DNA of 64,000 nucleotides from positions 2,388 through 66,387 of the forward strand of contig JAUSED010000002.1 of NCBI GenBank assembly GCA_030650425.1. Reading direction: 5' to 3'. Position 1 is the stretch's first letter. Each line of letters begins with the position of its first letter. The position numbers were made by a program, and so were the translations under genes. This document shows, piece after piece, positions 9,599-44,443 of this stretch. The notes under the pieces were generated by a model. The model was not told where the DNA came from. It searched no databases and worked only from the letters and a program-made list of their open reading frames with translations. The stretch is from Candidatus Omnitrophota bacterium. Lineage in GTDB: Bacteria > Omnitrophota > Gorgyraeia > Gygaellales > Profunditerraquicolaceae.

Positions 9599-9611
9599 CT
9601 TTCTCGCCTCA

Positions 9612-12587: not shown

Positions 12588-12636
12588 TCGTAAAACTACT
12601 CAATAAGCTTGCGCATATTACTCTACCCCTAAGACT

Positions 12637-12752
12637 GGAAACAGTTTCCAATCTGTGAAGGAAACTGTTTCCATCCCAAAGCGGAAACTGTTTCCGAACC
12701 AATCGGGACAGTGGGCTATCTTTCAGATTGGACATTTCAGATTGGACATTTC
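12637..12752. repeat. BIME/REP-like array B: three GGAAAC(A/T)GTTTCC copies with spacers aatctgtgaa, atcccaaagc and gaaccaatcg, plus gggacagtgggc, followed by a 15-bp direct repeat cagattggacatttc ×2
   Basis: ggaaacagtttccaatctgtgaaggaaactgtttccatcccaaagcggaaactgtttccgaaccaatcgggacagtgggc…cagattggacatttcagattggacatttc. Confidence 0.85.
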
Positions 12753-12764
12753 CCCTCATAAAAA

Positions 12765-14153
12765 TCATCTCACAACCTCCCAATGTCCACCTTTTGCAGG
12801 ACCAATTCGCTTTATTAAACCTTTCTTCTTTAACCGTCGTATATTCTTATCAATGGCCGTAGTGCTAATTCCTATGCTCTTTGAAAGTTCTTCCTTGGAA
12901 ATTACGGGATCCCTTTTTACAAGAACTAGGATTTTCTTCTGGCTTTCTACCAACCCTTCTACCAACCCTTCTACCCACCCTTCTTTACTTTCTTCCCGCA
13001 GGCTATATGATGGCCTACGGAATATAATTCTAAAGAAGGTGCCGCTTTTGATCACCGGATATGGAAGGCCGGATTTCTTCATTAAATCCCTCATCCGCCG
13101 GATACCCATCCCTATGCGCTCTACTTTACCCATCCGGGCAAAAAGATCGGCAATAAGTTCGTTGCGTCGGACCGAAAGATTAATAAGAGAGCGCGGAGTT
13201 AACCCTTCGGGTATTCCTCCCGGATTTCTTATTTCCACGCGGTCTTCATGCACCTCAACCATACTACTCGTTCCCCTCATACTGTAATCGCGATGAATAA
13301 TGGCATTAGCCACGGCTTCACGCAACGCCTCTATAGGCATCTCGTAAATATCTCTGCGATTTACTCCCTGTATTTCACTGCGAACATTAAGGTGCTTCTC
13401 GAGAAAAGTGATTGCCCTATTAAACTGGGTTAGAAGGTCATCCTGAACATCTTCCCGATCATAAATGTGGATTCTGTTTTTTCCTTTAAAAGCCGCTAGG
13501 ATCATTTCGCACTGCAAGATATGCCGCCGCGGCTTTTTTGCGAAGAAAAGCACGCCGGCATTTTTTATGTGCTCACCATCGCACAGATTAAGGCTTGAGA
13601 GAATTCTCTGCGTGTCTATCGAAGAAACATGAATATTTGCTTCTTTGAAAAATTCATTTATTTTTGATTCATCAATATCGCTAAAATTTGCTTCTGTATT
13701 TATTTGTTCTTCAAATGATGATTTAAAAGCTTGCTTGAATAAAAGTTCTATCTCCCTGCGGTTCATCTTTTGCGTCACTGCGTCCAACCGCCTAAAATAG
13801 CCATCACCGCAACTGTAGGGTTTATCCATTCCCTCTTCTATATCAATAACAATAATCGTCTCCACCTGTGCAATCCTTTTAATTGAAATTTGTGGTTCGC
13901 AATGACGGGCGATGTCGATAATTTCCGCTTTGAGTTTATTAGTTAATTTCTCGCCGGTAACCCTCCCGTCATCTGTAATGCCAAGAAGAATATAGCCGCC
14001 TTTTGTATTTGAAAAGGCGGTAATATCCCGGTTAATTCTGGAAGTATAATGTTCCTTAAATTCAACCGTCAATCCTTCGCCTTCAGATATTAGTAACCTT
14101 AGGTTTTCTGATTTCATATAATGCCCGTTACGCATCAATAATTTTGTTCTCAA
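12765..14153 (-). CDS. Putative ATP-binding transcriptional regulator: an AlbA_2 (Schlafen-like) DNA-binding domain, an HATPase_c_4 domain and a C-terminal winged HTH
   Basis: The N-terminus LLISEGEGLTVEFKEHYTS…ITAFSNTKGGYILLGITDDGRV is typical of AlbA_2 domains. The C-terminus …KEELSKSIGISTTAIDKNIRRLKKKGLIKRIG reads as a winged helix. The gene carries an in-frame 15-nt tandem repeat (ccaacccttctac ×3 at about 12935-12990) that encodes LVEGLVEGLVE. Confidence 0.55.
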   Translation of the reverse strand: MRTKLLMRNGHYMKSENLRLLISEGEGLTVEFKEHYTSRINRDITAFSNTKGGYILLGITDDGRVTGEKLTNKLKAEIIDIARHCEPQISIKRIAQVETIIVIDIEEGMDKPYSCGDGYFRRLDAVTQKMNRREIELLFKQAFKSSFEEQINTEANFSDIDESKINEFFKEANIHVSSIDTQRILSSLNLCDGEHIKNAGVLFFAKKPRRHILQCEMILAAFKGKNRIHIYDREDVQDDLLTQFNRAITFLEKHLNVRSEIQGVNRRDIYEMPIEALREAVANAIIHRDYSMRGTSSMVEVHEDRVEIRNPGGIPEGLTPRSLINLSVRRNELIADLFARMGKVERIGMGIRRMRDLMKKSGLPYPVIKSGTFFRIIFRRPSYSLREESKEGWVEGLVEGLVESQKKILVLVKRDPVISKEELSKSIGISTTAIDKNIRRLKKKGLIKRIGPAKGGHWEVVR

Positions 14154-18335: not shown

Positions 18336-19840
18336 ATTTTTCTTTCGCGGCCGGAATTGTCGGCTCCGGTAATTATCGTCGGGGTAATAAAGATAATCAA
18401 TTCTGTTTTTGTATTTTCCTTACTTCTGCTGCTAAACAACGGGCCAATTATAGGGGTCCGGGATAATCCGGGCAGGCCGTTTATGCTCCCGGTATCTTCA
18501 TTTTTCATCAGCCCGGTTATAATTAAGGTGGAGCCGTCTTTAACCTTGACCACTGTTTCTGATTGAGAAGTCTGAACTATGGGGACCTGCGAACCGGCAG
18601 CCGTAGTCAAGGTACTCGTTACGCTGCTAACCTCAGGCTTGATTTTCATCGTGATATACCCGTCGGCGCCGATAGTGGGAACAACGCTCAGTTTAACCCC
18701 TACGTCGATAAACTGAATACTCTCGGAAGTAATAGTGGTGGTTTCAGCCTGACTCTGGGATGCGGTTACGTAAGCTTGGCGGCTACCCACAAGAAGCTTT
18801 GCCTCTTCCTTGTTTACCACCACAATCCTCGGCCGGGTAAGCACCTTAGTCGTGCCGTATTGGTTAAGTAAATTCATCACCGCGTTAAAATTATCTCTGG
18901 TCAAGACGCCTAAATCTATCCTTCCGTAAGAAGATAGGGCTGGGCTCACCGCGAAATTACCCACCAAATCCAACTTTTGCCTTCCCGCGTCTTTAAAGAT
19001 TCCCTCCCACGATATGCCGCTTTGTAATTGATCATCGAGGGTAATCTCGATTATCTCTCCGCTAATCAACACCTGCCTGCTTTGTTCATCAAATTCTGCC
19101 ATTAGCTTTTTAATCCTGTTCACCCTTTGAGGCAGGTCAGTAACCATCACTTTAGCGCTCCTCTCGTCAACGATCACCTGTCCTACTCCCGGAGTAATCA
19201 AATCATTAATGTAGGTTTTGAGGTCGGCGAAACGCGCGTAGTTGATATCAAAGACCGCGGTCTCCAGCGGCTGATCCAGTTGTTTGATCGTATCCTCGAT
19301 TACGCGTACTGACTGCGGGGCATCGATGATGATAATCGTTCCGGTAGAATCATCGGAGATTATTTTGCCTACATCGGATTTTAAGTTTGAGATAACATTC
19401 ATCACATTCGCCGGCTTGGCATAGTTCAATTTGATCGTCTTGGTCTCCTTGCGCTCCCAGAATTTTTTGCCGTTGGCCTTTTCGTATTCGGCCCCGGTCA
19501 TTACTTTGACGATTTTACCTTTTATTTCATACGCTAAATCCTGCATCGTCGTAATCACATCCAAGGCGTCGGTAAAGGAAAGGTTATCCATAAAGACAGT
19601 AACCCTTCCTTTAACCTCGGGAGTGGTAATCACCGTCATCCCGCTTTTCTCCGAGAGCATTTTAAATAACTCATTAATTTCTACTCCTTTTAGATCCAGG
19701 GTAATCTTGCTCTCGCTTTTCTCTTCGCCTGTTTGCGGCTGAGCGGGCGCGCTATCCTGTTGAACATCTTCCGCGGATAAAGAACTAAGGCCCATCCAGA
19801 AAATAACCGTAAACGTAACCAATACAAATCCGGCTCTCAT
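18332..19840 (-). CDS. Secretin paralog (GspD/PilQ family), directly upstream of the TPR-secretin with a 4-bp overlap
   Basis: …VLTRPRIVVVNKEEAKLLVGSRQAYVTASQ…GLPGLSRTPIIGPLFSSRSKENTKTELIIFITPTII. The N-terminal domains are homologous to those of 16272-18335. Confidence 0.85.
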   Translation of the reverse strand: MRAGFVLVTFTVIFWMGLSSLSAEDVQQDSAPAQPQTGEEKSESKITLDLKGVEINELFKMLSEKSGMTVITTPEVKGRVTVFMDNLSFTDALDVITTMQDLAYEIKGKIVKVMTGAEYEKANGKKFWERKETKTIKLNYAKPANVMNVISNLKSDVGKIISDDSTGTIIIIDAPQSVRVIEDTIKQLDQPLETAVFDINYARFADLKTYINDLITPGVGQVIVDERSAKVMVTDLPQRVNRIKKLMAEFDEQSRQVLISGEIIEITLDDQLQSGISWEGIFKDAGRQKLDLVGNFAVSPALSSYGRIDLGVLTRDNFNAVMNLLNQYGTTKVLTRPRIVVVNKEEAKLLVGSRQAYVTASQSQAETTTITSESIQFIDVGVKLSVVPTIGADGYITMKIKPEVSSVTSTLTTAAGSQVPIVQTSQSETVVKVKDGSTLIITGLMKNEDTGSINGLPGLSRTPIIGPLFSSRSKENTKTELIIFITPTIITGADNSGRERKI

Positions 19841-20570: not shown

Positions 20571-21395
20571 CTATACCGCATTCCTGGCAATTAAATCCCG
20601 CACTAAGGTCGCGTCGATCACCGTCTTATTACTGGTAATCAAGCTCCTGAGCGCGTTATGACAAACTAAATTTATCCTGCGCGGATATCCCTGGCTATAA
20701 CGATGAATCTCGCTAATTGCCTCATCTGTAAAGAGTTTCAGCTCAGAATTAAACCCCGAGGCCCGCAACCGGTAATTGATCATATCCCTTGTCTCTTTTT
20801 CATCCAGGGGATTGATTACATATTTAAGGACGATGCGGTCAAAAAAGTTCTTGATCTCTTTGATCCGCGGGAGGAGCTCCATCTGGGAAAAAAGGACCAG
20901 CTGTAATAATTTATATTCGTTGGTTTCATAATTTAACAAGACGCGCAATACTTCTAAGGAAGCCGGATTAAGTTTTTGCGCTTCATCCACCACAAAAACA
21001 ATCGTTTTATTTTCTTCCACGCCTTTTTGAAAAAGAAACTTCTTGATCGCCTCTTTATAATCCAACACATTGGGAGAAGATTTAATTTCATCCTGAATGC
21101 CGAAGGTGCGTACTAGCGACTCCATAAAAAGTTCTTCACTCTGGGGGGTAGGATCCATAATCATATAAAAAAGAATATCTGGCCGCTCCTTTAACATCTG
21201 AAAAAGCTTACGCGATAGAGTAGTCTTACCCACCCCCACATCTCCTAAGATGACGCTTAATCCACGGCGCAAACGTATCTCGACCAAGACTCGAAGCAGG
21301 CAGGCCTTATGTTCGATAGATTCATAGAAGAAAGCCGGATCCGGGCTGCTGGAGAAAGGTTCTTTTTCTAAACCTAATACGGTATAATAGCTCAT
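20571..21395 (-). CDS. AAA ATPase of the ExeA/GspA/MshM family
   Basis: The Walker A motif is GDVGVGKTTL and the Walker B motif is TIVFVVDEAQKL. The family is usually encoded next to secretins. Confidence 0.7.
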   Translation of the reverse strand: MSYYTVLGLEKEPFSSSPDPAFFYESIEHKACLLRVLVEIRLRRGLSVILGDVGVGKTTLSRKLFQMLKERPDILFYMIMDPTPQSEELFMESLVRTFGIQDEIKSSPNVLDYKEAIKKFLFQKGVEENKTIVFVVDEAQKLNPASLEVLRVLLNYETNEYKLLQLVLFSQMELLPRIKEIKNFFDRIVLKYVINPLDEKETRDMINYRLRASGFNSELKLFTDEAISEIHRYSQGYPRRINLVCHNALRSLITSNKTVIDATLVRDLIARNAV

Positions 21396-29107: not shown

Positions 29108-29809
29108 TTATTTATTAAACCTGAAGTTCGCCAGATCGCAGTCCTGCATGATATAATCTTTCTGCTCCAGGCGCATCTTACCTGCCTGCTTGGCTTGATT
29201 CTCTCCGCCGCATTCCATAAAATCCTTAAAGCTGATGATTTCAGCTCGAATAAATCCCTGCTGGATATCCGAATGTATCGCCCCGGAGGCCTCCCAGGCA
29301 TTTTCTCCGTTTTTGATTAACCAGGCCCGGGTATCTTTTTCACCGGTGGTAAAGAAACTAATGAATCCGCTTTCTTTTAATACCTTGGCTAATAAAGTAT
29401 TCTTATCTTCTAAATCCGCTTGAGCCGCAACAATTACCGGCTTAGCCGTAAACAGCCCGTATTTAACTAATACCTGCTTCTCTTCGCTAGTTAACTCGGC
29501 AGAATAAATAAACTGTTCTTTTTCCAAAAAGTTTTTCAATTTATTTAATAAAGCTTTCTCCGCTTCCTCGCTTGAACGCGAAAGCCGCGTCTCGACGAAC
29601 TCCAAGTCTTTGAGGATAAGGTCGCTCGCCGAATCCTTAGCTACCAGAATCGCGCCCGCGTCAATAGCCGCATCCTCTCCGACAACTTCAACTTGAATAT
29701 AGGTTTTTTTCTTGGCCTTGGTGATGCTATCCACCTGATCCAGGCGGGGATCCTTAATATTATGTTTCCCGGGGGTAATCTCCGGTAATCCGATTACGCT
29801 GATTTTCAT
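29108..29809 (-). CDS. YchF-like protein that keeps the coiled-coil and C-terminal TGS domain but lacks the P-loop and G motifs
   Basis: The C-terminus …TGEKDTRAWLIKNGENAWEASGAIHSDIQQGFIRAEIISFKDF…AKQAGKMRLEQKDYIMQDCDLANFRFN aligns with the YchF TGS domain. The N-terminus MKISVIGLPEITPGKHNIKDPRLDQ goes from the GLP of the G1 region straight to the PDPRLDQ segment with no GxxxxGKS/T motif. The G3 DxxG equivalent reads EVVGED. Confidence 0.55.
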   Translation of the reverse strand: MKISVIGLPEITPGKHNIKDPRLDQVDSITKAKKKTYIQVEVVGEDAAIDAGAILVAKDSASDLILKDLEFVETRLSRSSEEAEKALLNKLKNFLEKEQFIYSAELTSEEKQVLVKYGLFTAKPVIVAAQADLEDKNTLLAKVLKESGFISFFTTGEKDTRAWLIKNGENAWEASGAIHSDIQQGFIRAEIISFKDFMECGGENQAKQAGKMRLEQKDYIMQDCDLANFRFNK

Positions 29810-29817: not shown

Positions 29818-31773
29818 TTACTGCTCTTCCTGTTTTTTGGTAGCTTGATATTGAGTAATGATAGGAGCGCTCACCTTACGCGGCACTTCTTCGTAGTGTG
29901 AAAAACGCATGGTATATTGCCCCCGGCCTCCGGTGATCGAACGCAGGTCATTGGCGTATTTAAACATCTCGGAGAGCGGCGCCTGCACTTTGACCATCTG
30001 TTGTTTTCCTTTTACCTCCATCCCGATAACCCTCCCCCGCCGGGAATTTATATCTCCGGAGATAGCGCCGAGGCATTCTTCCGGTATGTTTATATCCACA
30101 TCCATGATCGGCTCTAATAATACCGGGCCAGCCTCCATTACTGCCTTGCGTAAAGCCATTGCCCCGGCAATCTGAAAAGCCATATCCGAAGAATCAACTT
30201 CGTGGTATGAACCGTCAACCAGAGTAACCCGGATATCTTCGATTGGGTACCCGGCGACAGCTCCTTCCAAGACTGCCTGGCGCACCCCTTTCTCGACGGA
30301 AGGAATAAAATTACGCGGGATAGCGCCTCCGAATATCTTATCGACAAACTCCAGGCCTTTGCCTCTTGCCAATGGACTAACCTCAAGCCAACAATCGCCG
30401 TATTGTCCGCGGCCTCCTGACTGGCGCTTAAATTTACCCTGGACCTTAATAGTTTTGGTAATCGTTTCTTTATAAGAAACTTTCGGCGTCCCTAATTCCA
30501 CTGCGACATTAAATCTCTTTTTCATCCGGCCGACCATCACTGCCAGATGCAGGTCGCCTAAGCCGGAAACAATCAGTTCTTTAGTCTGCGGGTCGTGCCT
30601 AACCCCGAAGGTGTGGTCTTCTGCCGCCAGTTTATGCAAGGCATCGGAAATTTTTTCTTCATCCTCGCGGGATTTTGGTTTAACCGAAGCAGAGATCGCG
30701 GCTTCGGGGAAGGCTATCGGCTCAAACAAGAATTGCTCTTTATCCGCCGAGAGCGAATCCGAGACGCCCGTCTCTTTCAACTTGGCAATGGCAACAATAT
30801 CCCCGCAAGTAGCAGCCTCAATCTGTCTCTCCTCTTTACCCTGCAAAAGATAAATCGGGCCGATTCTTTCTTTTAAGTTTTTGTTCACGTTATAAAAACC
30901 CGCGTTCGCTAAAAGCTTCCCGGAAAAAACGCGTAATAATGTAAGTTGGCCTACAAACGGATCCGAAATATTTTTAAAAACAAAAGCTGAGAACGGAGCA
31001 TCTTCTTTAAGAGAAAGCTCTTTTTGCTCATCGGGCTTAGTAGAATTAAATACCTTTACAGGATTCCTTTCGGCTGGATCAGGCAGGTATTGCAAAATGT
31101 CCTCTAAAAGATCTTTAATCCCTTGATCGCTCAGCGCTGAACCAGCCAGAACCGGAAAAATCTTGCGCTTACTCACCGCCCGGGCTAACCCAACCTTAAT
31201 CTCCTCCATCGAGAGCCGAAGGGTGGAAAGGTATTTTTCCAATAAGCTATCATCACTTTCAGCGATTGCTTCTACTAAAAGCGGGTCTTCCAAAGATTGA
31301 ATGATCACGCAATTTTTAGAAAGATTGGATTTTAAATCTGCCAGGACTTTATTGATATCCGCGCCTTCTTTGTCCATCTTATTGATAAAGATCATAGATG
31401 GTAAATTAGCTTCCTGGGCCATCTCCCAGGCGCGCGTAGTCCCTACCTGTACGCCGCTTAGCGCATCCACCACAATCAGCGCGCTGTCTACCGCGCGCAG
31501 GCCAGAGATAACCTCTCCGAAAAAATCCGCGTACCCGGGCGTATCGACGATCTGTATACGATTTCCCTGATAATCACAAAAGAGCAGGCTTAAATTTATC
31601 GAGTTTTTCTTTTCTATTTCATCAAAACTGTAGTCGCTGACCGTTGTCCCGTCTTCAACCTTACCTTTGCGGGTCGTAGCTTTAGTGAAATAAAGTATGC
31701 TTTCAGCGAGGGTCGTTTTACCGGACTGGGCATGGCCTAAAAGGATGAGATTGCGTTTATTTTTCACATCCAT
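29818..31773 (-). CDS. Elongation factor G-family translational GTPase paralog with divergent G motifs
   Basis: G1 reads GHAQSGKTT, G3 reads DTPGYADF (Tyr where the catalytic His of DTPGH is expected) and G4 reads NKMD. The EF-G domains II-V follow, e.g. GRGQYGDCWLEVSP and RGQYTMRFSHYEEVP. Confidence 0.7.
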   Translation of the reverse strand: MDVKNKRNLILLGHAQSGKTTLAESILYFTKATTRKGKVEDGTTVSDYSFDEIEKKNSINLSLLFCDYQGNRIQIVDTPGYADFFGEVISGLRAVDSALIVVDALSGVQVGTTRAWEMAQEANLPSMIFINKMDKEGADINKVLADLKSNLSKNCVIIQSLEDPLLVEAIAESDDSLLEKYLSTLRLSMEEIKVGLARAVSKRKIFPVLAGSALSDQGIKDLLEDILQYLPDPAERNPVKVFNSTKPDEQKELSLKEDAPFSAFVFKNISDPFVGQLTLLRVFSGKLLANAGFYNVNKNLKERIGPIYLLQGKEERQIEAATCGDIVAIAKLKETGVSDSLSADKEQFLFEPIAFPEAAISASVKPKSREDEEKISDALHKLAAEDHTFGVRHDPQTKELIVSGLGDLHLAVMVGRMKKRFNVAVELGTPKVSYKETITKTIKVQGKFKRQSGGRGQYGDCWLEVSPLARGKGLEFVDKIFGGAIPRNFIPSVEKGVRQAVLEGAVAGYPIEDIRVTLVDGSYHEVDSSDMAFQIAGAMALRKAVMEAGPVLLEPIMDVDINIPEECLGAISGDINSRRGRVIGMEVKGKQQMVKVQAPLSEMFKYANDLRSITGGRGQYTMRFSHYEEVPRKVSAPIITQYQATKKQEEQ

Positions 31774-31795: not shown

Positions 31796-31824
31796 CCCAT
31801 GTACACCTACGCGGTATACATGGG
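31796..31824. repeat. Hairpin CCCATGTACACC-tacgcg-GTATACATGGG, related to the 45121 palindrome (shared core ATGTACACCT…GGTGTACAT)
   Basis: Read directly from the sequence. It lies between the KamA stop and the EF-G-like start. Confidence 0.6.
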
Positions 31825-31832: not shown

Positions 31833-33020
31833 CTATTCCAGGTAGGTATAAATCTTGCCTTTATAATTGCGCAGGACGTATTTCCCCTTTGCCTGCGAAA
31901 GGATGTAATTCGGGCCCACGGGGATCTTGCCTCCTCCCCCCGGTCCGTCAATAACATAGGTAGGGACAGCGTATCCGGAAGTATGGCCGCGTAATTTTTC
32001 CATAATGTTGATCCCGGCGGCAACCGGGGTCCTGAAATGCTGCGTGCCCCGAACCGGGTCGCACTGATAGATATAGTAAGGCCTAACCCTGACCTGCAAT
32101 AATTCATGCACCAGCTTTTTCATGATATAGGGACGGTCATTAACACCTTTTAAAAGCACAGTCTGGCTGCCCAAAGGAATTCCGGCATCCGCTAACATAT
32201 CGCAGGCAATTTTGCAACGCTTGGTTATTTCTTTCGGGTGATTAAAATGTATGCTCATCCAAATTGGCGAATATTTTTTAAGCATATTCGCCAATTTTTC
32301 CGTAATCCGCTGAGGGAGGGTCACCGGAACGCGCGTGCCCAGCCTTAAAAATTCCACATGCGATATAGAACGGATCCTTTCAAGCAGATTCTCTAATTCC
32401 TCATCTTCTAAAATTAACGGGTCTCCTCCGGATATAAGCACATCCCTTATTTTACGGTTAGCCTTGATATATTCTATAGCCCCGTCAAACCTGTTGGCGG
32501 ACGCGGGATTTTTCTCTTCGTGGTCGCCGACTAAACGCCTGCGCGTGCAATGGCGGCAGTACATCGCGCAATGATCGGTAGCTAATAATAAAACCCTGTC
32601 CGGATAACGGTGCACCAAGTGAGGCGCGGGAGAATCCCTGTCCTCCGCGCAAGGATCAGTCATTTCATGGGGAGTGATCATTGATTCCTGGATCACAGGG
32701 ACAGCCTGACGCCTAATCGGGCAATTGGGATCATCAGGATCTAATAACGTCCCCCAGTAAGGAGTGATCGCCATGGATAACCGTCCTTTGGCCTTATCTA
32801 TCCCCTTCTCTTCGTCGGGAGTTAAGGTAATAATCTGCGACAGGATATCCTTGACGCAGATTCTGTTTTTTATCTGCCAATGCCAATCTTCCCAATCTAA
32901 CGGGTTAACGTCTTTATAAATGCCGATCTGCTGGTAATCGCGCGGCTTCTTGGAAGTGCGGGGTAGCGGAGCGCTCTCCTGCTGCAATTTTTGATTTTCA
33001 ATTGCCTGAAGGCTCGTCAA
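31833..33020 (-). CDS. KamA-family radical SAM aminomutase (lysine 2,3-aminomutase-like)
   Basis: CAMYCRHCTRRR fits the CxxxCxxC motif, inside the conserved KamA core …GGDPLIL…. Confidence 0.8.
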   Translation of the reverse strand: MTSLQAIENQKLQQESAPLPRTSKKPRDYQQIGIYKDVNPLDWEDWHWQIKNRICVKDILSQIITLTPDEEKGIDKAKGRLSMAITPYWGTLLDPDDPNCPIRRQAVPVIQESMITPHEMTDPCAEDRDSPAPHLVHRYPDRVLLLATDHCAMYCRHCTRRRLVGDHEEKNPASANRFDGAIEYIKANRKIRDVLISGGDPLILEDEELENLLERIRSISHVEFLRLGTRVPVTLPQRITEKLANMLKKYSPIWMSIHFNHPKEITKRCKIACDMLADAGIPLGSQTVLLKGVNDRPYIMKKLVHELLQVRVRPYYIYQCDPVRGTQHFRTPVAAGINIMEKLRGHTSGYAVPTYVIDGPGGGGKIPVGPNYILSQAKGKYVLRNYKGKIYTYLE

Positions 33021-34018
33021 TTTAACCCTTTCCTTTCTGAGGCGCTCAAGATGATTGCCTCAATCAGATCTTCGTATTTCATCCCGGCGGCGTAAGCCAT
33101 AATCGGAAAATTCGATTCTTGAGGATCCAATCCCGGTAATGGATTTATCTCCAATACATATGGCACATTAAATTTATCCAAACGTATATCGGTACGCGAA
33201 ATATCCAGGCATCCTACCGCGCGGTGCGTCTTAAGCGCGACTTCTTTTACCCTTGCCTCAACATCCTTATCCAGGCGCGCCGGGCAATGAAAAACAGGCA
33301 CTAGCCCAAGCTCCCTGTTCCCCTGATACTCTTTCATCTTCCAGGAATAAAAATATTCTCCGCTATTTTTGCACTCCGAAAAATCTATCTCCAGAATCGG
33401 CAGGACCCGGGTCTTCCCGTTCTCTAATATCCCGACGGTAAGTTCTTTACCTTCGATAAATTCTTCGGCTAAGGCTTCCTGATGATAGGAACTCAGTGTC
33501 TCTTTCACTCTCTTAAAGAGATCATCGGCGTTATCCACGACATTCGCCTTGCTGATCCCTTTGGCCGAACCTTCGCAATTGGGTTTTACGATTAACGGAA
33601 ATTTTAACGCCGGATCTAATTCTTCGCTGCCTTTGGTAAAGAGCTGGAAATTCGGAGTGGGGATATTTTCCGCTTTTAAGATTTTTTTGGTAATGGTTTT
33701 ATTTAAGGCCAAGGCCAATGAAAAAGTATCCGAGCCTGTGTAGGGAATATTCAGGTAATCCAATATTGCCGGCACCTCTGACTCGCGGAATTTACCGGAT
33801 TGCCCTTCGGCAATATTAAAAACCATATCCACGGAATTTTTTCTGAAATAAGAGAAGAGTTTGGGATATTCCACGTCGATAGCTTCGACATGATGGCCTT
33901 TGGCCTTAATAGCGCTTACAATGGCGTTAATCGTCTCTTCGGAATCGTATTCCGAGAAATAATCCGCGGGCTTAGTTTCGTCTTTTTTCTTTAAATTGTA
34001 GGTTAATGCGATTTTCAT
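33017..34018 (-). CDS. ATP-grasp ligase of the D-alanine--D-alanine ligase family, paralog 1
   Basis: LIVKPNCEGSAKGISK, EFIEGKELTVGIL and YVLEINPLPGL align with the Ddl ATP-grasp core. The N-terminal domain is divergent. Confidence 0.7.
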   Translation of the reverse strand: MKIALTYNLKKKDETKPADYFSEYDSEETINAIVSAIKAKGHHVEAIDVEYPKLFSYFRKNSVDMVFNIAEGQSGKFRESEVPAILDYLNIPYTGSDTFSLALALNKTITKKILKAENIPTPNFQLFTKGSEELDPALKFPLIVKPNCEGSAKGISKANVVDNADDLFKRVKETLSSYHQEALAEEFIEGKELTVGILENGKTRVLPILEIDFSECKNSGEYFYSWKMKEYQGNRELGLVPVFHCPARLDKDVEARVKEVALKTHRAVGCLDISRTDIRLDKFNVPYVLEINPLPGLDPQESNFPIMAYAAGMKYEDLIEAIILSASERKGLN

Positions 34019-34024
34019 TCTATG

Positions 34025-35014
34025 TTAATTTAAATTATGCCTTTTAATCGCGCTATTCAATATTTTTCCGATCATCTGTTCGTAGGTAATCCCGGTATGC
34101 TCCGCTACCAGCTTGAAGACGTCTTCCGTAGAGAGCGAAGGCAAAGGATTAATCTCTAAAACATAAGGTTTCCCTTCACTATCTACGCGAAAATCAACCC
34201 GGCCAAAATCGCAGCAATCCACCGACTTATAAGTCCTTAAAGCGAGCTCGTCGATCTTTTTCTTTAAGTCTTGGGAAATTTTCGCGGGGCAGATGTATTC
34301 CAGCCTATCCGAAGTAATCCGGGCAAAGGTGTAAAATTTATCATTCAGTTTTAATTTTCCGTCGATCTTGATCTGGACAGCCGGCAACACTTCTACCGGG
34401 TCATTTCCGGCGAGCGCCACGGTGAATTCCTGTCCGGAGATAAATTCTTCGACCAATGCCGGTTGTTTATAGGCTGTGACGATATACTCAACCTGTTTAG
34501 CCAATTCTTCTCTGGTCTCTACCCGGGAACTTTCACTCAGGCCTTTGGATGAACCCTCGAAGCGCGGTTTGACGATAAGCGGAAATTTGTGATGATTAAT
34601 ATTGGCTAATTCGGATACGGAACTGACTTCAAAAAATTTCGGGGTGGGGATTTTTTCGGCGATAAAAATCTTTTTGGCCATTACCTTATCGAGGGTAAGG
34701 CCCAGGGTAAGCGCGTCTGATCCGACGAAAGGGATTCCGGCCATCTCAAGCAATATAGGAACCTGGGATTCACGATTCCTTCCAGTGAGGCCTTCGGAGA
34801 TATTGAAAACGATGTCCACTTTTAAAGAGGATAATTTTTCCAGAAGGTTACCGGCATTGCCAATTCTTTCCACCTTAAAACCATTTGATTCAATCGCGGA
34901 AGCTATAACATCAATAGTCGAAGGATGGTCAAATTCCGCGTTGGCATCCGCGGGATCTCCCTCCTTAAACTGATAATCTGACTTTAAATCGTAAGTTAAT
35001 CCTACTATTTTCAT
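34025..35014 (-). CDS. ATP-grasp ligase of the D-alanine--D-alanine ligase family, paralog 2
   Basis: LIVKPRFEGSSKGLSE, EFISGQEFTVALAGN and YVLEINPLPSL. It is paralogous to 33017-34018. Confidence 0.7.
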   Translation of the reverse strand: MKIVGLTYDLKSDYQFKEGDPADANAEFDHPSTIDVIASAIESNGFKVERIGNAGNLLEKLSSLKVDIVFNISEGLTGRNRESQVPILLEMAGIPFVGSDALTLGLTLDKVMAKKIFIAEKIPTPKFFEVSSVSELANINHHKFPLIVKPRFEGSSKGLSESSRVETREELAKQVEYIVTAYKQPALVEEFISGQEFTVALAGNDPVEVLPAVQIKIDGKLKLNDKFYTFARITSDRLEYICPAKISQDLKKKIDELALRTYKSVDCCDFGRVDFRVDSEGKPYVLEINPLPSLSTEDVFKLVAEHTGITYEQMIGKILNSAIKRHNLN

Positions 35015-35033
35015 AAAGTTTTAGCTCCGCTTA

Positions 35034-35066
35034 CAAAAAAAGGCTCTTATTGTCCTAAAGAGCCCT
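35034..35066 (-). terminator. Rho-independent terminator (7-bp GC-rich stem plus U7) lying 20 nt upstream of the ATG of the Ddl-like gene
   Basis: The minus-strand RNA reads GGCUCUUUAGGACAAUAAGAGCC-UUUUUUU-GUAAGCGGAGCUAAAACUUU-AUG. A TTGACA-containing AT-rich promoter-like region lies further upstream at about 35120-35176. Confidence 0.6.
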
Positions 35067-35176
35067 TATCCACCTGCCTGATTTTTCCAATTTATCTTTC
35101 CTGCCTCCGAAAAATTTATCTAAGTGTTGTATTTATGATATTTTTTACCACAATATGTTATAGTTGTCAAGAAATT

Positions 35177-35915: not shown

Positions 35916-36995
35916 TTAACAAATCCTCGGCAGTGGTTCAGAAGTCAACATATCCAAAATGCGTTCAGTATTAAAAACAGTGCGTAAGATTACCCGGCCC
36001 GCGGGCTTTTTAACCACCGTCCCGATAATTTCTGCGTTTTTTCCCAAAGGATGCCTTCTGAGCAAACGAATAACTTTATCCGCTTCTTCAGGAACAACCA
36101 CTAACAAAGCCTTTCCCTCATTGGCAACATATAACGAGTCTATGCCTAGCAATTCAGAGACAGCCTTAATTTTTTTTGATACCGGTATATTCTTCTCGTC
36201 AATGAATATACCTAAATTAGAGGCTTCCGCTATTTCATTTAAGGTTGTCGCTATTCCTCCCCGCGTCGGGTCGCGCATAAATTTTATTCCTGTAGTTTTT
36301 TCCAGGAGCGGAAGGATTAAGCCGTTTAGGCTGGCGCAATCGCTTTTAATATTCAGCTTTAAATCCAATTCTTTTCTTTTCGCTAAAACGCTAAAGCCGT
36401 GTTCAGCAATATTACCGGTGATAATAATCTTGTCTTGGCAAGATATATTCTTTACCGAAAGTTTTCTGGATGTAAGCAACCTGCCTATGCCTGAGGTATT
36501 AATAAATAATTTATCCGCGGCCAGCTTCTCCACGACCTTGGTGTCTCCGGTGACCACCTTGACCGCTGCTGCTTTAGCGTAACTAGATATGGAATCGATT
36601 ATTTTTTCCAAAATACTAATCTCCAAGCCTTCCTCGATAATCAAAGCCAGAGAAATATATTCGGGAAGAGCGCCCAGCATAACCAAATCATTAATCGTTC
36701 CGGTTACGGCTAGTTTACCAATATCTCCTCCGGGGAAAAATAGCGGGCTGACCACGAAAGAATCGGTAGTAAAAGCTATTTTTTCTTGATAGTCGATAAC
36801 CGCGCTATCCGCGAGCTCACTTAGAATAGGGTTATCAAATTTCTTAAGCAGCGTGCTTTGAATAAAGTTATGGGTCAGCCTTCCGCCGCTGCCATGGCCA
36901 AGTAATATTTTAGTTGTTTTTTCCACCGGTCTTTTTGAAGAGGTCCAAGAACCTGTCTTCGTATTCCTTATAGACGTTCCACTTATCCAATTCAA
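35916..36995 (-). CDS. hypE: Hydrogenase maturation factor HypE (PurM-like carbamoyl dehydratase)
   Basis: The N-terminus …ILLGHGSGGRLTHNFIQSTLL… matches the HypE N-terminus. The C-terminus ends …SEPLPRIC, matching the HypE PRIC motif. The true start is probably downstream of the track start, because that start overlaps the PAC2 gene by 85 nt. Confidence 0.8.
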   Translation of the reverse strand: MNWISGTSIRNTKTGSWTSSKRPVEKTTKILLGHGSGGRLTHNFIQSTLLKKFDNPILSELADSAVIDYQEKIAFTTDSFVVSPLFFPGGDIGKLAVTGTINDLVMLGALPEYISLALIIEEGLEISILEKIIDSISSYAKAAAVKVVTGDTKVVEKLAADKLFINTSGIGRLLTSRKLSVKNISCQDKIIITGNIAEHGFSVLAKRKELDLKLNIKSDCASLNGLILPLLEKTTGIKFMRDPTRGGIATTLNEIAEASNLGIFIDEKNIPVSKKIKAVSELLGIDSLYVANEGKALLVVVPEEADKVIRLLRRHPLGKNAEIIGTVVKKPAGRVILRTVFNTERILDMLTSEPLPRIC

Positions 36996-39702: not shown

Positions 39703-40794
39703 TTAGCGCCGGAATTTATAATACACATTACAGGATCCTTCAGTAGTAACCATACATGGCCCGACAGGATTATCCGGCTGGCAGGCTTTAGCAAATAAGG
39801 GGCAATCCGATGGAAGAATCAGCCCTTTTAAAACATCGCCGCAGCGGCATTGTTTTATTGGTTTTATTACGACCTTATTACTACGAAGAGCAAAAACCCG
39901 GTTAGTATCGAATCTTGAATATGTATCTTTTAACTTCAGCCCGCTATCCGGTATAATCCCAAACCCGCGCCAATCTGAGTCCGTTCTCTCAAATACCCGG
40001 CTTATGGCTCTCTTTGCCCGCGGATTTCCCCCCGGAGTAACGATGCGCGTATACTGGTTAGCAACATAAGGTTTATTTAAGCTGATCTGTTCGAGGATAA
40101 TGCATATCCCTTCCAGAATATCTACAGGTTCAAATCCCGCGACGCAACAAGCTGTTTTATATTTTTTAGGGATAAACGCGTAATCTTTGGTTCCGATAAT
40201 CGCCGAGACATGCCCCGGGCAAAGAAACCCGTCGATTTTAAGCCTTTTATCCGCTAAGAGATATTTCATTGCCGGCGGGATTAATTTAAGCGCGGAAAAA
40301 AAAGAGAGGTTCTTTAACCTTTCTTTTTGACCGGCAAGTATACTTAAGGCAATCGTAGGAGCAGTGGTTTCAAAACCCACCGCTAAAAAAATTACTTTTT
40401 TATCCGGATTGGCGAGGGCGATAGTTACGGAATCTAAAGGAGAATAGATTACCCGTATATTGCCGAACTTAGTTTTCTCTTTTTCCAAAGATGAGAAGGT
40501 TCCGGGTATGCGCAGCATATCGCCGAAAGTAACGATAAGCGCGTCTTTATCCTTAGCCAATTCAATGGCGCTATCAATGTACCCTTGAGAGCTCACGCAT
40601 ACCGGGCAGCCCGGCCCGGAGATCAACCTTATATTTTTGGGAAGCAGCTCCTTAAGCCCAAAGCGGCAAAAGTTTTGCGTGTGCGTGCCGCAGACCTCCA
40701 TTATATTGATATTATTTCCGGGGTTTAAATCCATAATCTTAGCGCTGATTTTTTCAACCAGCTTAGGATTACGGAATTCGTCAATGTATTTCAT
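39703..40794 (-). CDS. hypD: Hydrogenase maturation factor HypD
   Basis: The conserved motifs are CGTHTQ, GPGCPVC, GFETTAP and CPGHVSAI. Confidence 0.85.
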   Translation of the reverse strand: MKYIDEFRNPKLVEKISAKIMDLNPGNNINIMEVCGTHTQNFCRFGLKELLPKNIRLISGPGCPVCVSSQGYIDSAIELAKDKDALIVTFGDMLRIPGTFSSLEKEKTKFGNIRVIYSPLDSVTIALANPDKKVIFLAVGFETTAPTIALSILAGQKERLKNLSFFSALKLIPPAMKYLLADKRLKIDGFLCPGHVSAIIGTKDYAFIPKKYKTACCVAGFEPVDILEGICIILEQISLNKPYVANQYTRIVTPGGNPRAKRAISRVFERTDSDWRGFGIIPDSGLKLKDTYSRFDTNRVFALRSNKVVIKPIKQCRCGDVLKGLILPSDCPLFAKACQPDNPVGPCMVTTEGSCNVYYKFRR

Positions 40795-40993
40795 TGGCTA
40801 TCTTTAAGGTTTCTTTGGCTCTCTGCGGATCAACTTTTTCAATAGCAAAACCCGCATGAACCAATACATAATCCCCGATTTTTAGGTCGGGAAGCATCTG
40901 AATGTTGATCTTGCGTAAAAGCCTTCCGCACTCAACTTCGGCAAAATCATCGTTAATCTTTTTGACTTTCATCGGTATACCTAAACACATCAT
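40781..40993 (-). CDS. hypC: Hydrogenase maturation factor HypC (HupF/HypC family)
   Basis: The N-terminus MMCLGIPMKV matches the MC(L/I)(G/A)(I/V)P signature. The length is about 70 aa. It overlaps hypD by 14 nt. Confidence 0.85.
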   Translation of the reverse strand: MMCLGIPMKVKKINDDFAEVECGRLLRKINIQMLPDLKIGDYVLVHAGFAIEKVDPQRAKETLKIANEIH

Positions 40994-42099
40994 TAACCTC
41001 CATACCCCGCGATTACAGCCTGGCCTAAAGAAATACCCGCGTCATTGCAAGGCAAATATTGATGCGTAAAAACCTGAAAACCTTCTTTGTTTAATAAACC
41101 CGAGCTCATCTTGAGTAAAACTTTATTCTGAAAAACTCCTCCGGATAAAGCGATTTTATTTGTCCTATGTTCTTTTCTTAAAATCAGCGCTATTTTCACC
41201 ATCATTTCAGCTACGCCTTGATGGAAACGCCAAGCAATCTTTTCCCGAGATATCTTTAACTTTAAATCTTTGATAATTTGTTTAAGAATATTAGTCGGAT
41301 CTAAAATATACCCGCCTTTATCCTTCCTTATCACAGCAGGGGACACTTTCCTACGCGCGTTTACTATTTGTTGGAAAGTGTCCCCTGCTGTTGACGCCTC
41401 GGCTAATTTTTCCAGCTCAATTGCCAGCTCTGCTTCAAACGCCGCTTTCCTTTTACCCAAAACAAGGCTTCCTGCCGCGTCAAAAAGCCTGCCCATACTA
41501 CTGGCTAAAGGAGAATTGATCCCTGATTTATATATTTTATTTAAAATCTGTTTTTTATCTACGCTCTGATCAAAATTAAGCCAAGCTGCCAGCGTTCTCC
41601 ACGGTTCGAATATCGCCCGCTCTCCTCCAACCAGAGGAATTTCTTTTAAATGCGCTAAGCGCGAGAATTTTTGATAATCACAGAGCAAAACCTCTGCTCC
41701 CCAAATAGTATTATCCGTTCCTAAACCAGTCCCGTCAAAAGCCAAGCCGATTATTTTTTGGTTTTCCAGCCCATTTTCCGCCATGCAAGAAGCGATATGC
41801 GCATGGTGATGTTGAACATGTAGTATATAGTACTTAACAGGCAGGGATTCGCTAAATTTAGTTGACTGATACTCAGGGTGTAAATCGCAGGCGATAATCT
41901 TAGGATGTTTTTTAAGGAAATGTTTTGCGTCTTTCTCAAAAGCCGCTAAATCCTTAGGCCTGCTTAGGTCCGCATGCAGCGGGCTAAGATAAGCGCCATC
42001 CCCTCGCGCGAAACAAATAGTATTCTTGGCCTGGCCGCCTAAGGCCAAAACCGTATTCTTTAATTTAAAAGGCAGCCTAACTTCTAGTGTTTTCATCAA
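40993..42099 (-). CDS. HypF-like carbamoyltransferase consisting only of the C-terminal Kae1/YgjD-like domain. The acylphosphatase, Zn-finger and YrdC domains are absent.
   Basis: The C-terminus KIALSGGVFQNKVLLK…PCNDAGISLGQAVIAG and the HHHAHI motif match the HypF C-terminal domain. The ORF is only 368 aa. An in-frame inverted-repeat insertion at 41334-41390 encodes STAGDTFQQIVNARRKVSPAV. Confidence 0.7.
   Translation of the reverse strand: MMKTLEVRLPFKLKNTVLALGGQAKNTICFARGDGAYLSPLHADLSRPKDLAAFEKDAKHFLKKHPKIIACDLHPEYQSTKFSESLPVKYYILHVQHHHAHIASCMAENGLENQKIIGLAFDGTGLGTDNTIWGAEVLLCDYQKFSRLAHLKEIPLVGGERAIFEPWRTLAAWLNFDQSVDKKQILNKIYKSGINSPLASSMGRLFDAAGSLVLGKRKAAFEAELAIELEKLAEASTAGDTFQQIVNARRKVSPAVIRKDKGGYILDPTNILKQIIKDLKLKISREKIAWRFHQGVAEMMVKIALILRKEHRTNKIALSGGVFQNKVLLKMSSGLLNKEGFQVFTHQYLPCNDAGISLGQAVIAGYGG
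41334..41390. repeat. Inverted-repeat element CAGCAGGGGACACTTTCC…GGAAAGTGTCCCCTGCTG, in frame in the hypF-like gene
   Basis: cagcaggggacactttcctacgcgcgtttactatttgttggaaagtgtcccctgctg. Confidence 0.85.
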
Positions 42100-42979: not shown

Positions 42980-43044
42980 GCAGTAGGGGACACTTTCCGT
43001 CAGGGCTATCAGGAACCTCTTGAAAGGAAAGTGTCCCCTACTGC
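42980..43044. repeat. Inverted-repeat element GCAGTAGGGGACACTTTCC…GGAAAGTGTCCCCTACTGC (19-bp arms). Its right half supplies the last 13 codons and the stop of the DUF2156-like gene.
   Basis: gcagtaggggacactttccgtcagggctatcaggaacctcttgaaaggaaagtgtcccctactgc. Confidence 0.85.
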
Positions 43045-43950
43045 GGATACCTCAGCCACTCTTCTTCGCGCAATATACGCCGGTACTAATCTCACCGGAT
43101 GATATGATAATTTTACTTTTTTTAAGTTTTCTAATCCGGAATCATCCATAATATTTATAAATTTGTAATTTTTGAGTTCTTGGGTAAAAGAGCGAAAGAT
43201 AAATTGCGCCAAGCCCTTGATCGATAAATCCGTGATTTCGTACAAAATACAAAATGTCTCCGGGTTCAGAGCGAAACCAAAGGTAAAACCTTTTATTTCT
43301 TTATTGATCCTGACTACTCCGCCCTGAAAGCCTAAAGTCGAATAATTTTCCAACGCTTCATTCAAAGAGATCCTGCTATCATCCAACATCCCCTGATAGA
43401 GATGATCAGGGCTTGCGGATTGGCGCTGGCCCTGCCAGAGATCATAGAGCTTAAGACAATCACCCTGATCACTTAAAGTAAACTTCGCATATCTAAAATC
43501 ATAATGCTTGATAAAATAATTGTAACTTGAGCGCTTGGATTTAAATTTGCTTCCTTTAAGCCGCGCTAAATCCGCGCGGCTACAAAGATAATCATAGGAT
43601 TTTAACTCGCAGCTAAGCCCTAAACCTTTATAAAAACTTAAGTCCTGCTCCTCAATATTTTCGATGTGGGCGAATTCCGGGTTTTTATTCAATCGATCCA
43701 GGATACTCAAGGCTTCACAAGCAACTTGCGGATTATTCGCCTTACTTAATGGAGAAAGATACAAGAAAGAACCAATTTTATCTTGAAAAAATACACAGAG
43801 GCTCTTTTCTATCTCCAGCCAACGGATATCGAAAAACTTTCTCCAGATGTAAATATTCGCGAAAGCATAAACCGATAATTCGTGCTTTTCTAGAGATAAA
43901 TATTTATCAAATAACTTTTTATCGCTGAGCTTTAATTTATTCAGGCGCAT
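43009..43950 (-). CDS. DUF2156-like protein (related to the C-terminal domain of lysyl-phosphatidylglycerol synthase; FemABX/GNAT-like fold)
   Basis: …ELSVYAFANIYIWRKFF… plus the similarity covering the full length. The C-terminal …VSAVGDTFLSRGS* is contributed by the inverted-repeat element. Confidence 0.4.
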   Translation of the reverse strand: MRLNKLKLSDKKLFDKYLSLEKHELSVYAFANIYIWRKFFDIRWLEIEKSLCVFFQDKIGSFLYLSPLSKANNPQVACEALSILDRLNKNPEFAHIENIEEQDLSFYKGLGLSCELKSYDYLCSRADLARLKGSKFKSKRSSYNYFIKHYDFRYAKFTLSDQGDCLKLYDLWQGQRQSASPDHLYQGMLDDSRISLNEALENYSTLGFQGGVVRINKEIKGFTFGFALNPETFCILYEITDLSIKGLAQFIFRSFTQELKNYKFINIMDDSGLENLKKVKLSYHPVRLVPAYIARRRVAEVSAVGDTFLSRGS

Positions 43951-44443
43951 CAGGAAGCTTAAGCTCGATCAGATCCAAAACATCTTCATAAGCTTGGATG
44001 ATTTGGGGATTATCCTTTAACATCTCCAGCTGTTTAGGAGAATTAAGATAGGCGGACAAATAATCAGCGTATTCCTTAAATTCTTTTTTGCGCATATTCT
44101 CTTTCACATAAGGACAATTTAAGTCAACAGTAAGCACCACTTTCTTATCGCGCAGATTGATCAGGAACGGATATAGCTGGCATTCAAATGGCCGCGTCTG
44201 GTAAATTTTACATTTATTGCTTCCGCACTCAAAAAAAGCGCAAACAAAGCCTTCACCTTTAGGGCTAGGAACAGGACGAATCTTTCTCTGCATATTGATA
44301 TACGCCGGAGGGATATCCTTGTCGATTAAATCCTGAACCTCTTCCTCCAATAAGCATGGCGTCCAAACCGAATCCATATCTTTGAACCTGCAGCAACCTT
44401 GGCATTGAAGACAGGCTTCCTGTGGAACAAATTGCTTGATCAT
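43937..44443 (-). CDS. YkgJ-family cysteine-cluster protein (UPF0153; CxxCxxCC Zn/Fe-chelating domain)
   Basis: CLQCQGCCRF…C…CAFF…C…C. Confidence 0.7.
   Translation of the reverse strand: MIKQFVPQEACLQCQGCCRFKDMDSVWTPCLLEEEVQDLIDKDIPPAYINMQRKIRPVPSPKGEGFVCAFFECGSNKCKIYQTRPFECQLYPFLINLRDKKVVLTVDLNCPYVKENMRKKEFKEYADYLSAYLNSPKQLEMLKDNPQIIQAYEDVLDLIELKLPDAPE

Follow-up and report, generated by a model that had tools for sequence, protein, structure and literature searches.

The subject of this study is a three-gene string, and the leader that precedes it, on a 64,000-nucleotide (nt) stretch of contig JAUSED010000002.1 from a Candidatus Omnitrophota bacterium (assembly GCA_030650425.1, contig positions 2,388 to 66,387). 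This whole stretch is referred to below as the window, and coordinates are given within it unless another locus is named. All three genes lie on the minus strand and were assigned from the list of open reading frames (ORFs) and from Pfam and NCBIfam models. The first two genes, at 34025-35014 and 33017-34018, encode paralogous ATP-grasp amide ligases with the fold of D-alanine–D-alanine ligase (Ddl), which we call AG1 (329 amino acids, aa) and AG2 (333 aa). The third, at 31833-33020, encodes a short-form lysine 2,3-aminomutase of the KamA/AblA type (395 aa), a family of radical S-adenosylmethionine (SAM) enzymes that also carry pyridoxal phosphate (PLP). Six nt lie between AG1 and AG2, and AG2 and KamA overlap by 4 nt (TTGA), such that the TTG start codon of KamA is shared with the TGA stop codon of AG2, an arrangement that suggests translational coupling. 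A preliminary description of this DNA had reported a KamA gene with two Ddl-like ligase genes upstream in the same orientation and with 4- and 6-nt junctions, and the ORF list agrees with it.

The 59-nt spacer 3' of KamA contains a 12-bp hairpin without a U tail (CCCATGTATACC-gcgta-GGTGTACATGGG; 31796-31824, minus strand), which, judged from the sequence, likely marks the 3' boundary of the operon. In relatives, the spacer between KamA and the following gene, which encodes a paralog of elongation factor G (EF-G), often carries a hairpin or a consensus promoter (CTTGACC...TATATAAT), and EF-G was therefore considered a separate transcription unit. Since the EF-G paralog is also missing from about one third of the related Omnitrophota loci, the operon was delimited to AG1, AG2 and KamA only.

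The aminomutase and the two ligases

The KamA homolog contains the Pfam domains Radical_SAM and LAM_C and passed the KamA family model TIGR00238 (347 bits, cut-off 199.2). Its best NCBIfam model was that of lysine 2,3-aminomutase (TIGR03820), for which the score of 518.8 bits was 6.6 short of the cut-off of 525.4; this match spans only positions 6-360 of the 417 in the model because the C-terminus of the protein is absent. The models for EpmB (TIGR03821, 243.5 bits, cut-off 369.3), glutamate 2,3-aminomutase (TIGR04368, 473 bits, cut-off 650) and arginine aminomutase (TIGR04468, about 409-410 bits, cut-off 600) were all missed. With the solved enzyme of Clostridium subterminale (2A5H, whose numbering is used here for the aminomutase) the protein shares 56% identity, and the alignment of the two showed that the iron–sulfur/SAM cysteines C125, C129 and C132 are kept in a CxxxCxxC motif that reads CAMYCRHC, as are R134, the PLP lysine K337 and the GGGGK motif. 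The window protein also keeps D293 and D330, as do 10 of the 11 homologs linked to the module; these two residues hold the epsilon-ammonium group of lysine, and their counterparts in glutamate 2,3-aminomutase are Lys and Asn. Based on the retention of these substrate residues and on the scores below the other cut-offs, we assigned the specificity as lysine and not arginine or glutamate, and the enzyme is predicted to turn lysine into beta-lysine.

The preliminary description had called for the homolog to be placed among KamA, EpmB and the glutamate and arginine aminomutases, and the model scores and residues place it with the lysine type. The possibility it raised that the homolog clusters with EpmB was not borne out, as the scores are of the lysine type, D293, D330 and K337 are kept, the EpmB cut-off is far from reached and no efp gene was found in the window or in any fetched locus. 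We likewise rejected an identity as glutamate 2,3-aminomutase, given the score for that model and the Asp/Asp pair at the substrate positions, and a role in lysine fermentation, as no kamD/E, kdd, kce or kal-type genes were among the annotated neighbors. The window protein also has a distinctive C-terminal end. Its chain end aligns to position 367 of the clostridial enzyme, C268 is replaced by Arg, and the C-terminal zinc site of that enzyme, whose inter-subunit ligands we take to be C268, C375, C377 and C380, is not present in the alignment. All module-linked KamA homologs are short in the same manner (362-395 aa) and are without C268.

The two ligases, which are 41% identical to each other, both have Dala_Dala_lig_C/ATP-grasp matches in Pfam and NCBIfam. 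The best Ddl model, NF002378, gave 187.5 bits for AG1 and 200.2 bits for AG2, both below its cut-off of 243, and both proteins are far under all cut-offs of the Ddl equivalog models. The first ~75 residues of each could not be aligned by phmmer to any solved Ddl. In keeping with the structural modeling that the preliminary description had proposed, the AlphaFold model of AG1 (predicted local distance difference test, pLDDT, 89) takes the Ddl fold, superposing over its full length on Ddl structures with Foldseek template modeling (TM) scores of 0.78-0.85, and a full-length Ddl fold, as modeled, is the architecture of a small-molecule ligase. The residues for catalysis and for ATP and Mg binding are kept in both proteins (K110, K149, E189, R272, D274, E287 and N289). 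An alignment of 180 family domains revealed in addition a signature in the N-terminal domain that has no counterpart in Ddl, consisting of D23, E27, D29, N71, E74, R81 and E82 (AG1 numbering), and the conserved acidic residues of this substrate domain are D23, E27, D29, E74 and E82. The earlier characterization of the ligases as divergent, with an atypical acidic N-terminal domain, is therefore upheld by a conserved signature in a region that does not align to solved Ddl.

The family alignment separates the ligases into two types, represented by AG1 and AG2. Those of the AG1 type have a hydrophobic residue at the position of DdlB K215 (Ile in AG1) and Asp at that of S281, a residue which we take to bind the carboxylate of the second D-alanine in DdlB. 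Relative to DdlB, AG1 has T in place of H63, I or R (depending on the alignment) in place of K215 and D in place of S281, and does not keep Y216. In AG2, H63 is replaced, K215 is kept and E occupies the Y216 position, while S281 is kept as Ser in the family alignment and is ambiguous in a hand alignment. The AG2 type, in which the K and S of Ddl are kept, is the one that is fused to KamA elsewhere. The acidic residues around the putative substrate sites and the Asp of AG1 would fit amine-rich substrates. Among the best 120 matches listed for AG1, relatives were 79-100% identical and nearly all of those with a named organism were from Omnitrophota; the annotation of one Candidatus Omnitrophota metagenome-assembled genome includes a protein that matches AG1 at 100% identity.

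Association of the ligases with the aminomutase across genomes

In order to compare the locus among relatives, we used a set of 80 species-level Omnitrophota genomes, each contributing one locus, that had been selected by similarity to AG1, a choice that raises the conservation figure of AG1 only. The order AG1-AG2-KamA was intact in every locus of this set long enough to show the trio, and the genes around it (the EF-G paralog, HypE and a PRK04334-like gene) were variable. The median identities of the three proteins were 80-84%, compared to 76% for PurH and 63% for the YchF-like protein encoded nearby. A scan of the genome collection with AG1 returned only Omnitrophota, and other phyla were reached by a search of 1.84 billion representative proteins, which yielded 1124 ligase relatives at E < 1e-30. 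Close relatives of the ligases are annotated in Woesearchaeota, Nanoarchaeota, Aenigmarchaeota, Altiarchaeales and Thermoplasmatota.

Twelve genomic contexts were inspected for this wider ligase family, and a KamA gene was present within 4 kb of all seven unfused members with a readable context. The organisms with such KamA-linked ligases include an Elusimicrobiota bacterium, Methanothrix harundinacea and Bathyarchaeia, and the gene orders differ: ligase-KamA; ligase-ligase-KamA; KamA, ligase and a ligase::GNAT fusion in M. harundinacea (locus L096); GNAT-KamA-ligase with a second, convergent ligase in Bathyarchaeia; and, in locus L092, KamA-ligase-ligase, then two additional ATP-grasp genes and a gene for a LysA-like decarboxylase. 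Fusions of the two activities occur in both orders, as ligase::KamA (P0182) and as KamA::ligase (P0209 and P0260), and two further proteins (P0406 and P0371) contain both domains. Tandem double-ligase proteins account for 38 of 165 family sequences (search representatives, some of their cluster members, AG1 and AG2), which fits the view that AG1 and AG2 work as a pair or heterodimer. Synteny, independent gene orders and fusions together make the functional link between the aminomutase and the ligases far stronger than adjacency in a single genome could. The conservation of genomic context, which the preliminary description had suggested examining, is thus seen both within Omnitrophota, where the trio is kept, and elsewhere, where the orders vary and fusions occur.

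Several other arrangements were observed around members of the family. The L092 cluster (1169-8416 of that locus) encodes KamA, the two family ligases, two further ATP-grasp proteins of 440 and 427 aa, both distant, and a LysA/FslC-like PLP decarboxylase that has LysA and N-citrylornithine decarboxylase as relatives; the closest named relatives of its ligase are from DPANN archaea, and the cluster resembles an extended assembly line that would yield an amide derived from beta-lysine. In three loci (L081, L084 and L089), a tandem-fused double ligase of 675-724 aa is directly followed by a gene for a Peptidase_S58 protein (DmpA/BapA-type), and this combination is a second conserved module. The Peptidase_S58 family includes beta-peptide aminopeptidases.

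Hydrogenase genes are found near the module in three unrelated lineages, which may be a coincidence in anaerobes. In the window they are genes for HypE, HypD, HypC and a HypF fragment (35916-36995 and 39703-42099), in the Bathyarchaeia locus L220 genes for HypF, HypC and HypD directly upstream of the module (477-5175 of that locus), and in L089 genes for MvhD and NiFe hydrogenase subunits downstream (11258-13229 of that locus). The HypF-like gene of the window (40993-42099, minus strand, 368 aa) encodes the C-terminal Kae1-like domains only, with none of the acylphosphatase, zinc-finger and YrdC parts next to it. A protein with a CxxCxxCC (PF03692) domain is encoded beside a stand-alone LPG_synthase_C protein (the C-terminal part of lysyl-phosphatidylglycerol synthase) at 43009-44443 of the window, minus strand; the same domain occurs in P0259 as a fusion with a family ligase, and again near the Bathyarchaeia module (L220, 14236-14754). 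Finally, a role in folate cofactor metabolism was considered in view of the neighbors PurH, FolC, FolE, MnmE and PabB/C and was rejected, as this synteny is limited to Omnitrophota-like lineages; we take it as inherited gene order because the Elusimicrobiota and archaeal loci do not share it.

The promoter, leader and terminator hairpin

Upstream of AG1 on the minus strand, a sigma-70-like promoter is predicted from the sequence at 35142-35170. It is near consensus, with TTGACA at 35170-35165, a 17-nt spacer and an extended -10 element, TG-n-TAAAAA, at 35150-35142, and related loci, when their upstream regions are aligned, share the TTGACA...TGTGATAAAAAA/TGTGGTAAAAAA block. The leader that follows (35015-35141, minus strand; ~105-125 nt) was delineated in an alignment of 47 sequences and includes the blocks GGAGG (35108-35104) and TTGGAAAAA (35090-35082), both invariant or nearly so among the 47; in the comparison of upstream regions the two almost invariant blocks read GGAGG and AARTTGGAAAAA. 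The distance from GGAGG to an invariant TTG is mostly 12-14 nt (range 12-17), and that from the TTG to the stem of a terminal hairpin is 23-27 nt in most loci. This hairpin, AAGGGCTCTT-9 nt-AAGAGCCTTT with a T run (35035-35067, minus strand), was identified from the sequence and the minimum-free-energy fold and resembles an intrinsic terminator, having a 10-bp stem with one G-U pair, a 9-nt loop and seven T residues, the last of them 20 nt from the AG1 start codon (ATG, 35014). The terminator scan passed over it, since the loop limit of that scan was 8 nt.

The promoter-leader-terminator unit is present in 72 of the 80 Omnitrophota loci, and it is kept irrespective of the gene that precedes it, be this the PRK04334-like gene, a gene for a HAD-like hydrolase downstream of PAC2, or another. 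The stem of the terminator covaries, with compensatory changes in 5 of 8 consensus pairs according to RNAalifold. The T run is only 0-10 nt away from the AG1 start codon in about 30 loci, which leaves no room for another promoter, so that AG1 can be transcribed there only by read-through and the element must be a terminator that is either conditional or leaky. Scanning metagenomes with a strict leader pattern returned 80 loci, of which 51 had AG1 directly downstream, 5 were genuine copies cut by contig ends, and the remaining 24 were chance matches in unrelated coding DNA without conserved flanks. None of the 56 genuine metagenome copies stood ahead of any gene other than AG1. The recurrence in 72 of 80 genomes and on 56 metagenome contigs indicates that the association of the gene string with the leader is not due to chance, and since the leader is found only ahead of the AG1 operon, it is probably an attenuator. 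Both statements of the preliminary description about this region have therefore held: the clean terminator hairpin 20 nt before the first start codon and downstream of TTGACA is real, and its suggested function as an attenuator is supported by a conserved unit that occurs solely ahead of this operon. In two divergent lineages (L082 and L091) the leader sequence is unrelated, and a terminator hairpin is again located just upstream of the first ligase gene.

Several candidates for what the leader might encode or bind were also considered. No Rfam match was obtained for the leader and the surrounding 8 kb at E up to 1, and we rejected a lysine riboswitch or other described RNA on that ground; the z-score of the fold of the whole leader is -0.69. 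The frame that begins at the invariant TTG (TTG-GAA-AAA) starts with MEK or MKK in most loci and has 3 to 11 codons, its stop usually lying 0-12 nt before the stem or within it, and in 12 loci there is no stop inside the element; in view of this variable length and of the stopless loci, a conserved leader peptide was rejected. Second copies of the leader motif, at 22654 of the window and in seven other loci, were all inside coding sequence and were dismissed as chance matches. Between the leader terminator and AG1, loci L016, L024, L059, L075 and others have extra GC-rich hairpin repeats (e.g., GCCGCAGAAAGCGGCACACCG) that look like small repetitive elements. As to mechanism, the stem could be masked by a ribosome translating the short TTG-GAA-AAA frame, a protein could recognize the repeated GGA-containing blocks, or the leader could contain a small unstructured ligand-binding site.

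A proposed pathway and its alternatives

The locus is best explained as a whole by a single operon for the synthesis of beta-lysine and its ligation into amides, preceded by an attenuated leader, a reading to which we give about an even chance of being correct. According to this reading, AG1, AG2 and KamA would be transcribed as one operon from a strong promoter, through a leader ending in an intrinsic terminator that would halt most transcripts unless a signal permits read-through; possible signals are a metabolite, an RNA-binding protein and a ribosome that occupies the TTG-GAA-AAA frame. KamA would convert L-lysine to beta-lysine, and AG1 and AG2, acting as a heterodimer or in two successive steps, would form amide bonds involving beta-lysine by converting a carboxylate to an acyl phosphate that is then attacked by an amine. 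ATP-grasp enzymes join a carboxylate to an amine, and beta-lysine has one of the former and two of the latter; two ligases per module suggest either two distinct amide bonds or a heterodimeric, polymerizing enzyme. We infer both the nature of the product and the manner in which the leader detects its signal. A small peptide or amide that contains beta-lysine and is probably cationic would be the most likely product, for example beta-lysyl-beta-lysine, a short oligomer, or a conjugate of beta-lysine with another amino acid or an amine. The acetyltransferase, decarboxylase and Peptidase_S58 accessories hint at such small beta-amino-acid peptides or amine conjugates, which could be capped, decarboxylated or hydrolyzed.

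A number of points weigh against this reading. To our knowledge, no enzyme of this ligase family has been characterized, and the use of beta-lysine by the ligases is deduced solely from genomic association. The argument from an acidic pocket leans on an uncertain alignment in the N-terminal domain and the omega-loop, and the omega-loop is poorly modeled in AG1 (pLDDT < 50 at residues 225-235). No KamA gene was seen in the available flanks of the tandem-fused double ligases located by Peptidase_S58 or GNAT genes, so part of the family, including the double ligases linked to Peptidase_S58, may use other substrates, and a single ligase lies beside KamA in some lineages (L082 and L090), which implies that two ligation steps are not universal. 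For the leader, RNAalifold predicted from the 47 sequences the terminator only, with no antiterminator and no aptamer-like fold; the mini-ORF varies in length, and GGAGG, at 12-14 nt from the TTG, is farther away than expected of a ribosome-binding site. Lastly, the very high conservation of the proteins would equally fit a macromolecular target.

A comparison with described systems shows which parts of the proposed pathway have precedents. The closest described system is AblA/AblB of methanogens, a lysine 2,3-aminomutase and a beta-lysine N-epsilon-acetyltransferase that make N-epsilon-acetyl-beta-lysine. The first enzyme is alike (518.8 bits to TIGR03820), the aminomutase is in both cases co-transcribed with an enzyme that modifies, or here would modify, beta-lysine, and archaeal versions of the module include a GNAT protein; the module differs in having two ATP-dependent ligases of the Ddl fold instead of an acetyl-CoA-dependent acetyltransferase, and in an aminomutase of the short form without the C-terminal zinc site. 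The closest mechanistic analogy, as we see it, is PylB/PylC, in which a radical-SAM lysine mutase provides a diamino acid and a Ddl-like ATP-grasp ligase joins the carboxylate of the latter to the epsilon-amine of lysine. PylB, however, is not of the KamA family, and there is no pylD or pylS/T context here; PylC was not among the matches of the AG1 and AG2 sequences to solved structures. In the EpmA/EpmB system a KamA-family enzyme makes beta-lysine and a second enzyme attaches it by an amide bond, but in the window the EpmB cut-off is missed, the partner is an ATP-grasp ligase and not a paralog of lysyl-tRNA synthetase, and efp is not nearby. Relative to the Ddl/VanA family, the three-domain ATP-grasp fold (TM 0.78-0.85) and the ATP/Mg catalytic residues are shared, whereas the scores are below cut-off, the acidic N-terminal domain is divergent, the substrate residues are changed, the window ligases are without a cell-wall gene context, and the family is found in archaea and fused to KamA. 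In the biosynthesis of blasticidin S, enzymes of the ATP-grasp fold assemble the peptidyl and nucleoside parts (PMC11641026). That pathway, whose beta-arginine branch is the second close mechanistic analogy, likewise combines a KamA-family enzyme that makes a beta-amino acid, the arginine 2,3-aminomutase BlsG, with an amide ligase of the ATP-grasp fold, and the arginine aminomutase family (TIGR04468) is related to the window protein, but it is a Streptomyces antibiotic cluster of many genes, whereas ours is a phylum-wide three-gene module among housekeeping genes, and the substrate residues here point to lysine (409 bits to TIGR04468, cut-off 600). The preliminary description had stated that this gene combination is not a described pathway, and no description of a pathway of KamA and Ddl-like ligases was found in the literature searched; an earlier prediction in the amidoligase survey of Iyer et al. 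(2009) is possible.

An extension of the proposal, which we put forward only tentatively and consider doubtful as a whole, is that KamA and paired Ddl-like ligases constitute a widespread, unrecognized pathway to new cationic beta-lysine metabolites (oligo-beta-lysine or beta-lysyl-amine conjugates) in Omnitrophota, Elusimicrobiota, DPANN archaea, Bathyarchaeia and Methanothrix. These metabolites could serve as polyamine substitutes or solutes, and the leader would be of a new kind, a riboswitch or mini-ORF attenuator sensing lysine or the product.

A narrower possibility, that the module makes a compatible solute, is a special case of beta-lysine amide synthesis with a defined physiological role, and we regard it as unlikely. 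It derives from the archaeal modules with an acetyltransferase, that is, KamA, ligase and ligase::GNAT in M. harundinacea and GNAT, KamA, ligase and ligase in Bathyarchaeia, and from the precedent of the osmolyte N-acetylglutaminylglutamine amide, which is made by a GNAT protein and an ATP-grasp enzyme (Ngg). It also draws on the report (PMC9128505) that M. harundinacea has ablA and an unusually divergent ablB homolog (26% identity); these may be the genes of L096. The archaeal relatives are the only members in which a GNAT gene was found beside the aminomutase, as neither the window operon nor the Omnitrophota loci contain one; moreover, the related genomes are largely from freshwater, groundwater and sediment, and the trio is conserved at a housekeeping level and lies among housekeeping genes.

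For the leader in particular, the hairpin could be a mere terminator of the upstream gene, or part of a separate small RNA, and not a regulator of AG1. It lies 110 nt past the stop codon of the upstream gene (35177), it is 40-140 nt from the AG1 start in many relatives, which leaves room for a second promoter, and this explanation would also account for the lack of an antiterminator among the 47 leaders. We nevertheless judge it unlikely, because the hairpin is preceded by a conserved promoter that is itself downstream of the neighboring gene, the unit stays with AG1 even where that neighbor is a different one, AG1 could be transcribed only by read-through in the ~30 loci with 0-10 nt between the T run and the ATG, and the metagenome scan found no genuine leader copy ahead of other genes.

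The very high conservation of the three proteins speaks for a further alternative, in which the ligases attach beta-lysine to a protein, such as a translation factor, and thereby replace EpmA of the EF-P system. Translation-related genes are indeed neighbors of the module (the EF-G paralog and YchF-like gene in the window, S21 in L082 and NusA/IF-2 in L087), and there are protein-modifying ATP-grasp enzymes, including RimK and tubulin–tyrosine ligase, to the Pfam model of which there is a weak match. Yet the aminomutase is not of the EpmB type (243 bits, cut-off 369), a neighborhood-level search found no EF-P (efp) or EpmA genes in the window or in any fetched locus, EF-G is missing from about one third of the loci and is often preceded by a promoter of its own, the nearest match in fold is Ddl, which is a small-molecule ligase, and the archaea that carry the module use aIF5A with hypusine and not EF-P. 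As such, we consider protein modification improbable. That the ligases are ordinary cell-wall D-Ala-D-Ala ligase paralogs whose adjacency to KamA is incidental is scarcely credible, for although their best database matches are Ddl models and structures and some sources annotate relatives as D-alanine–D-alanine ligase, their 187-200 bits are below every Ddl cut-off (243 for the best model), DdlB H63 and Y216 are replaced in both proteins and K215 and S281 also in AG1, no mur genes occur within the 64-kb window, and such a role is argued against by the frequency of the family in archaea without D-Ala-D-Ala murein (Methanothrix, Bathyarchaeia, Woesearchaeota and Nanoarchaeota) and by the fusion of the ligase domain to KamA in several proteins. 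The possibility raised in the preliminary description that these are genuine ddl paralogs was thus not borne out.

Some other features of the window were recorded in the course of the analysis. The EF-G paralog (29818-31773, minus strand, 651 aa), which is present in about two thirds of related loci, is matched by EF-G models in two stretches and is missing ~45 residues after the G domain. The YchF-like protein (29108-29809, minus strand, 233 aa) has the YchF C-terminal domain and GLPEITPGKH in place of the P-loop, and its gene comes after KamA or the EF-G paralog in most Omnitrophota loci that are long enough. A stop-free frame of at least 3,207 codons (79-9699, minus strand) starts near 9622 with a signal-peptide-like N-terminus, contains tandem repeats of 315-318 nt (431-1236 and 2519-3288) and leaves the window at its left end, the truncation being why the ORF list does not include it; it is probably one of the giant surface proteins typical of Omnitrophota. 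Two tandem secretin genes (687 and 502 aa; 16272-19840, minus strand) are followed in the window by an ExeA-like AAA ATPase gene (20571-21395), and the GyrB gene (60699-63770, minus strand, 1023 aa) has an intein splicing domain at residues 471-653.

The evidence supports the cautious reading of the locus as a beta-lysine tailoring pathway in which known enzyme families occur in an undescribed combination that is widely distributed and highly conserved, and that in Omnitrophota has its own leader, which is a candidate for a new cis-regulatory element. The annotation of these ligases as Ddl or as generic ATP-grasp proteins can wrongly imply cell-wall synthesis when the biology of an organism is deduced from its genome. 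The known roles of beta-lysine are few: as a methanogen osmolyte, in the modification of EF-P, in lysine fermentation and in some antibiotics. If the proposed reading is true, the three-gene module would add a new branch of beta-amino-acid metabolism in organisms that have so far not been grown, and one that is conserved more strongly than purine biosynthesis genes across a candidate phylum and is common to archaea as well, for which M. harundinacea, as a cultured carrier of the archaeal version of the module, offers an entry point.

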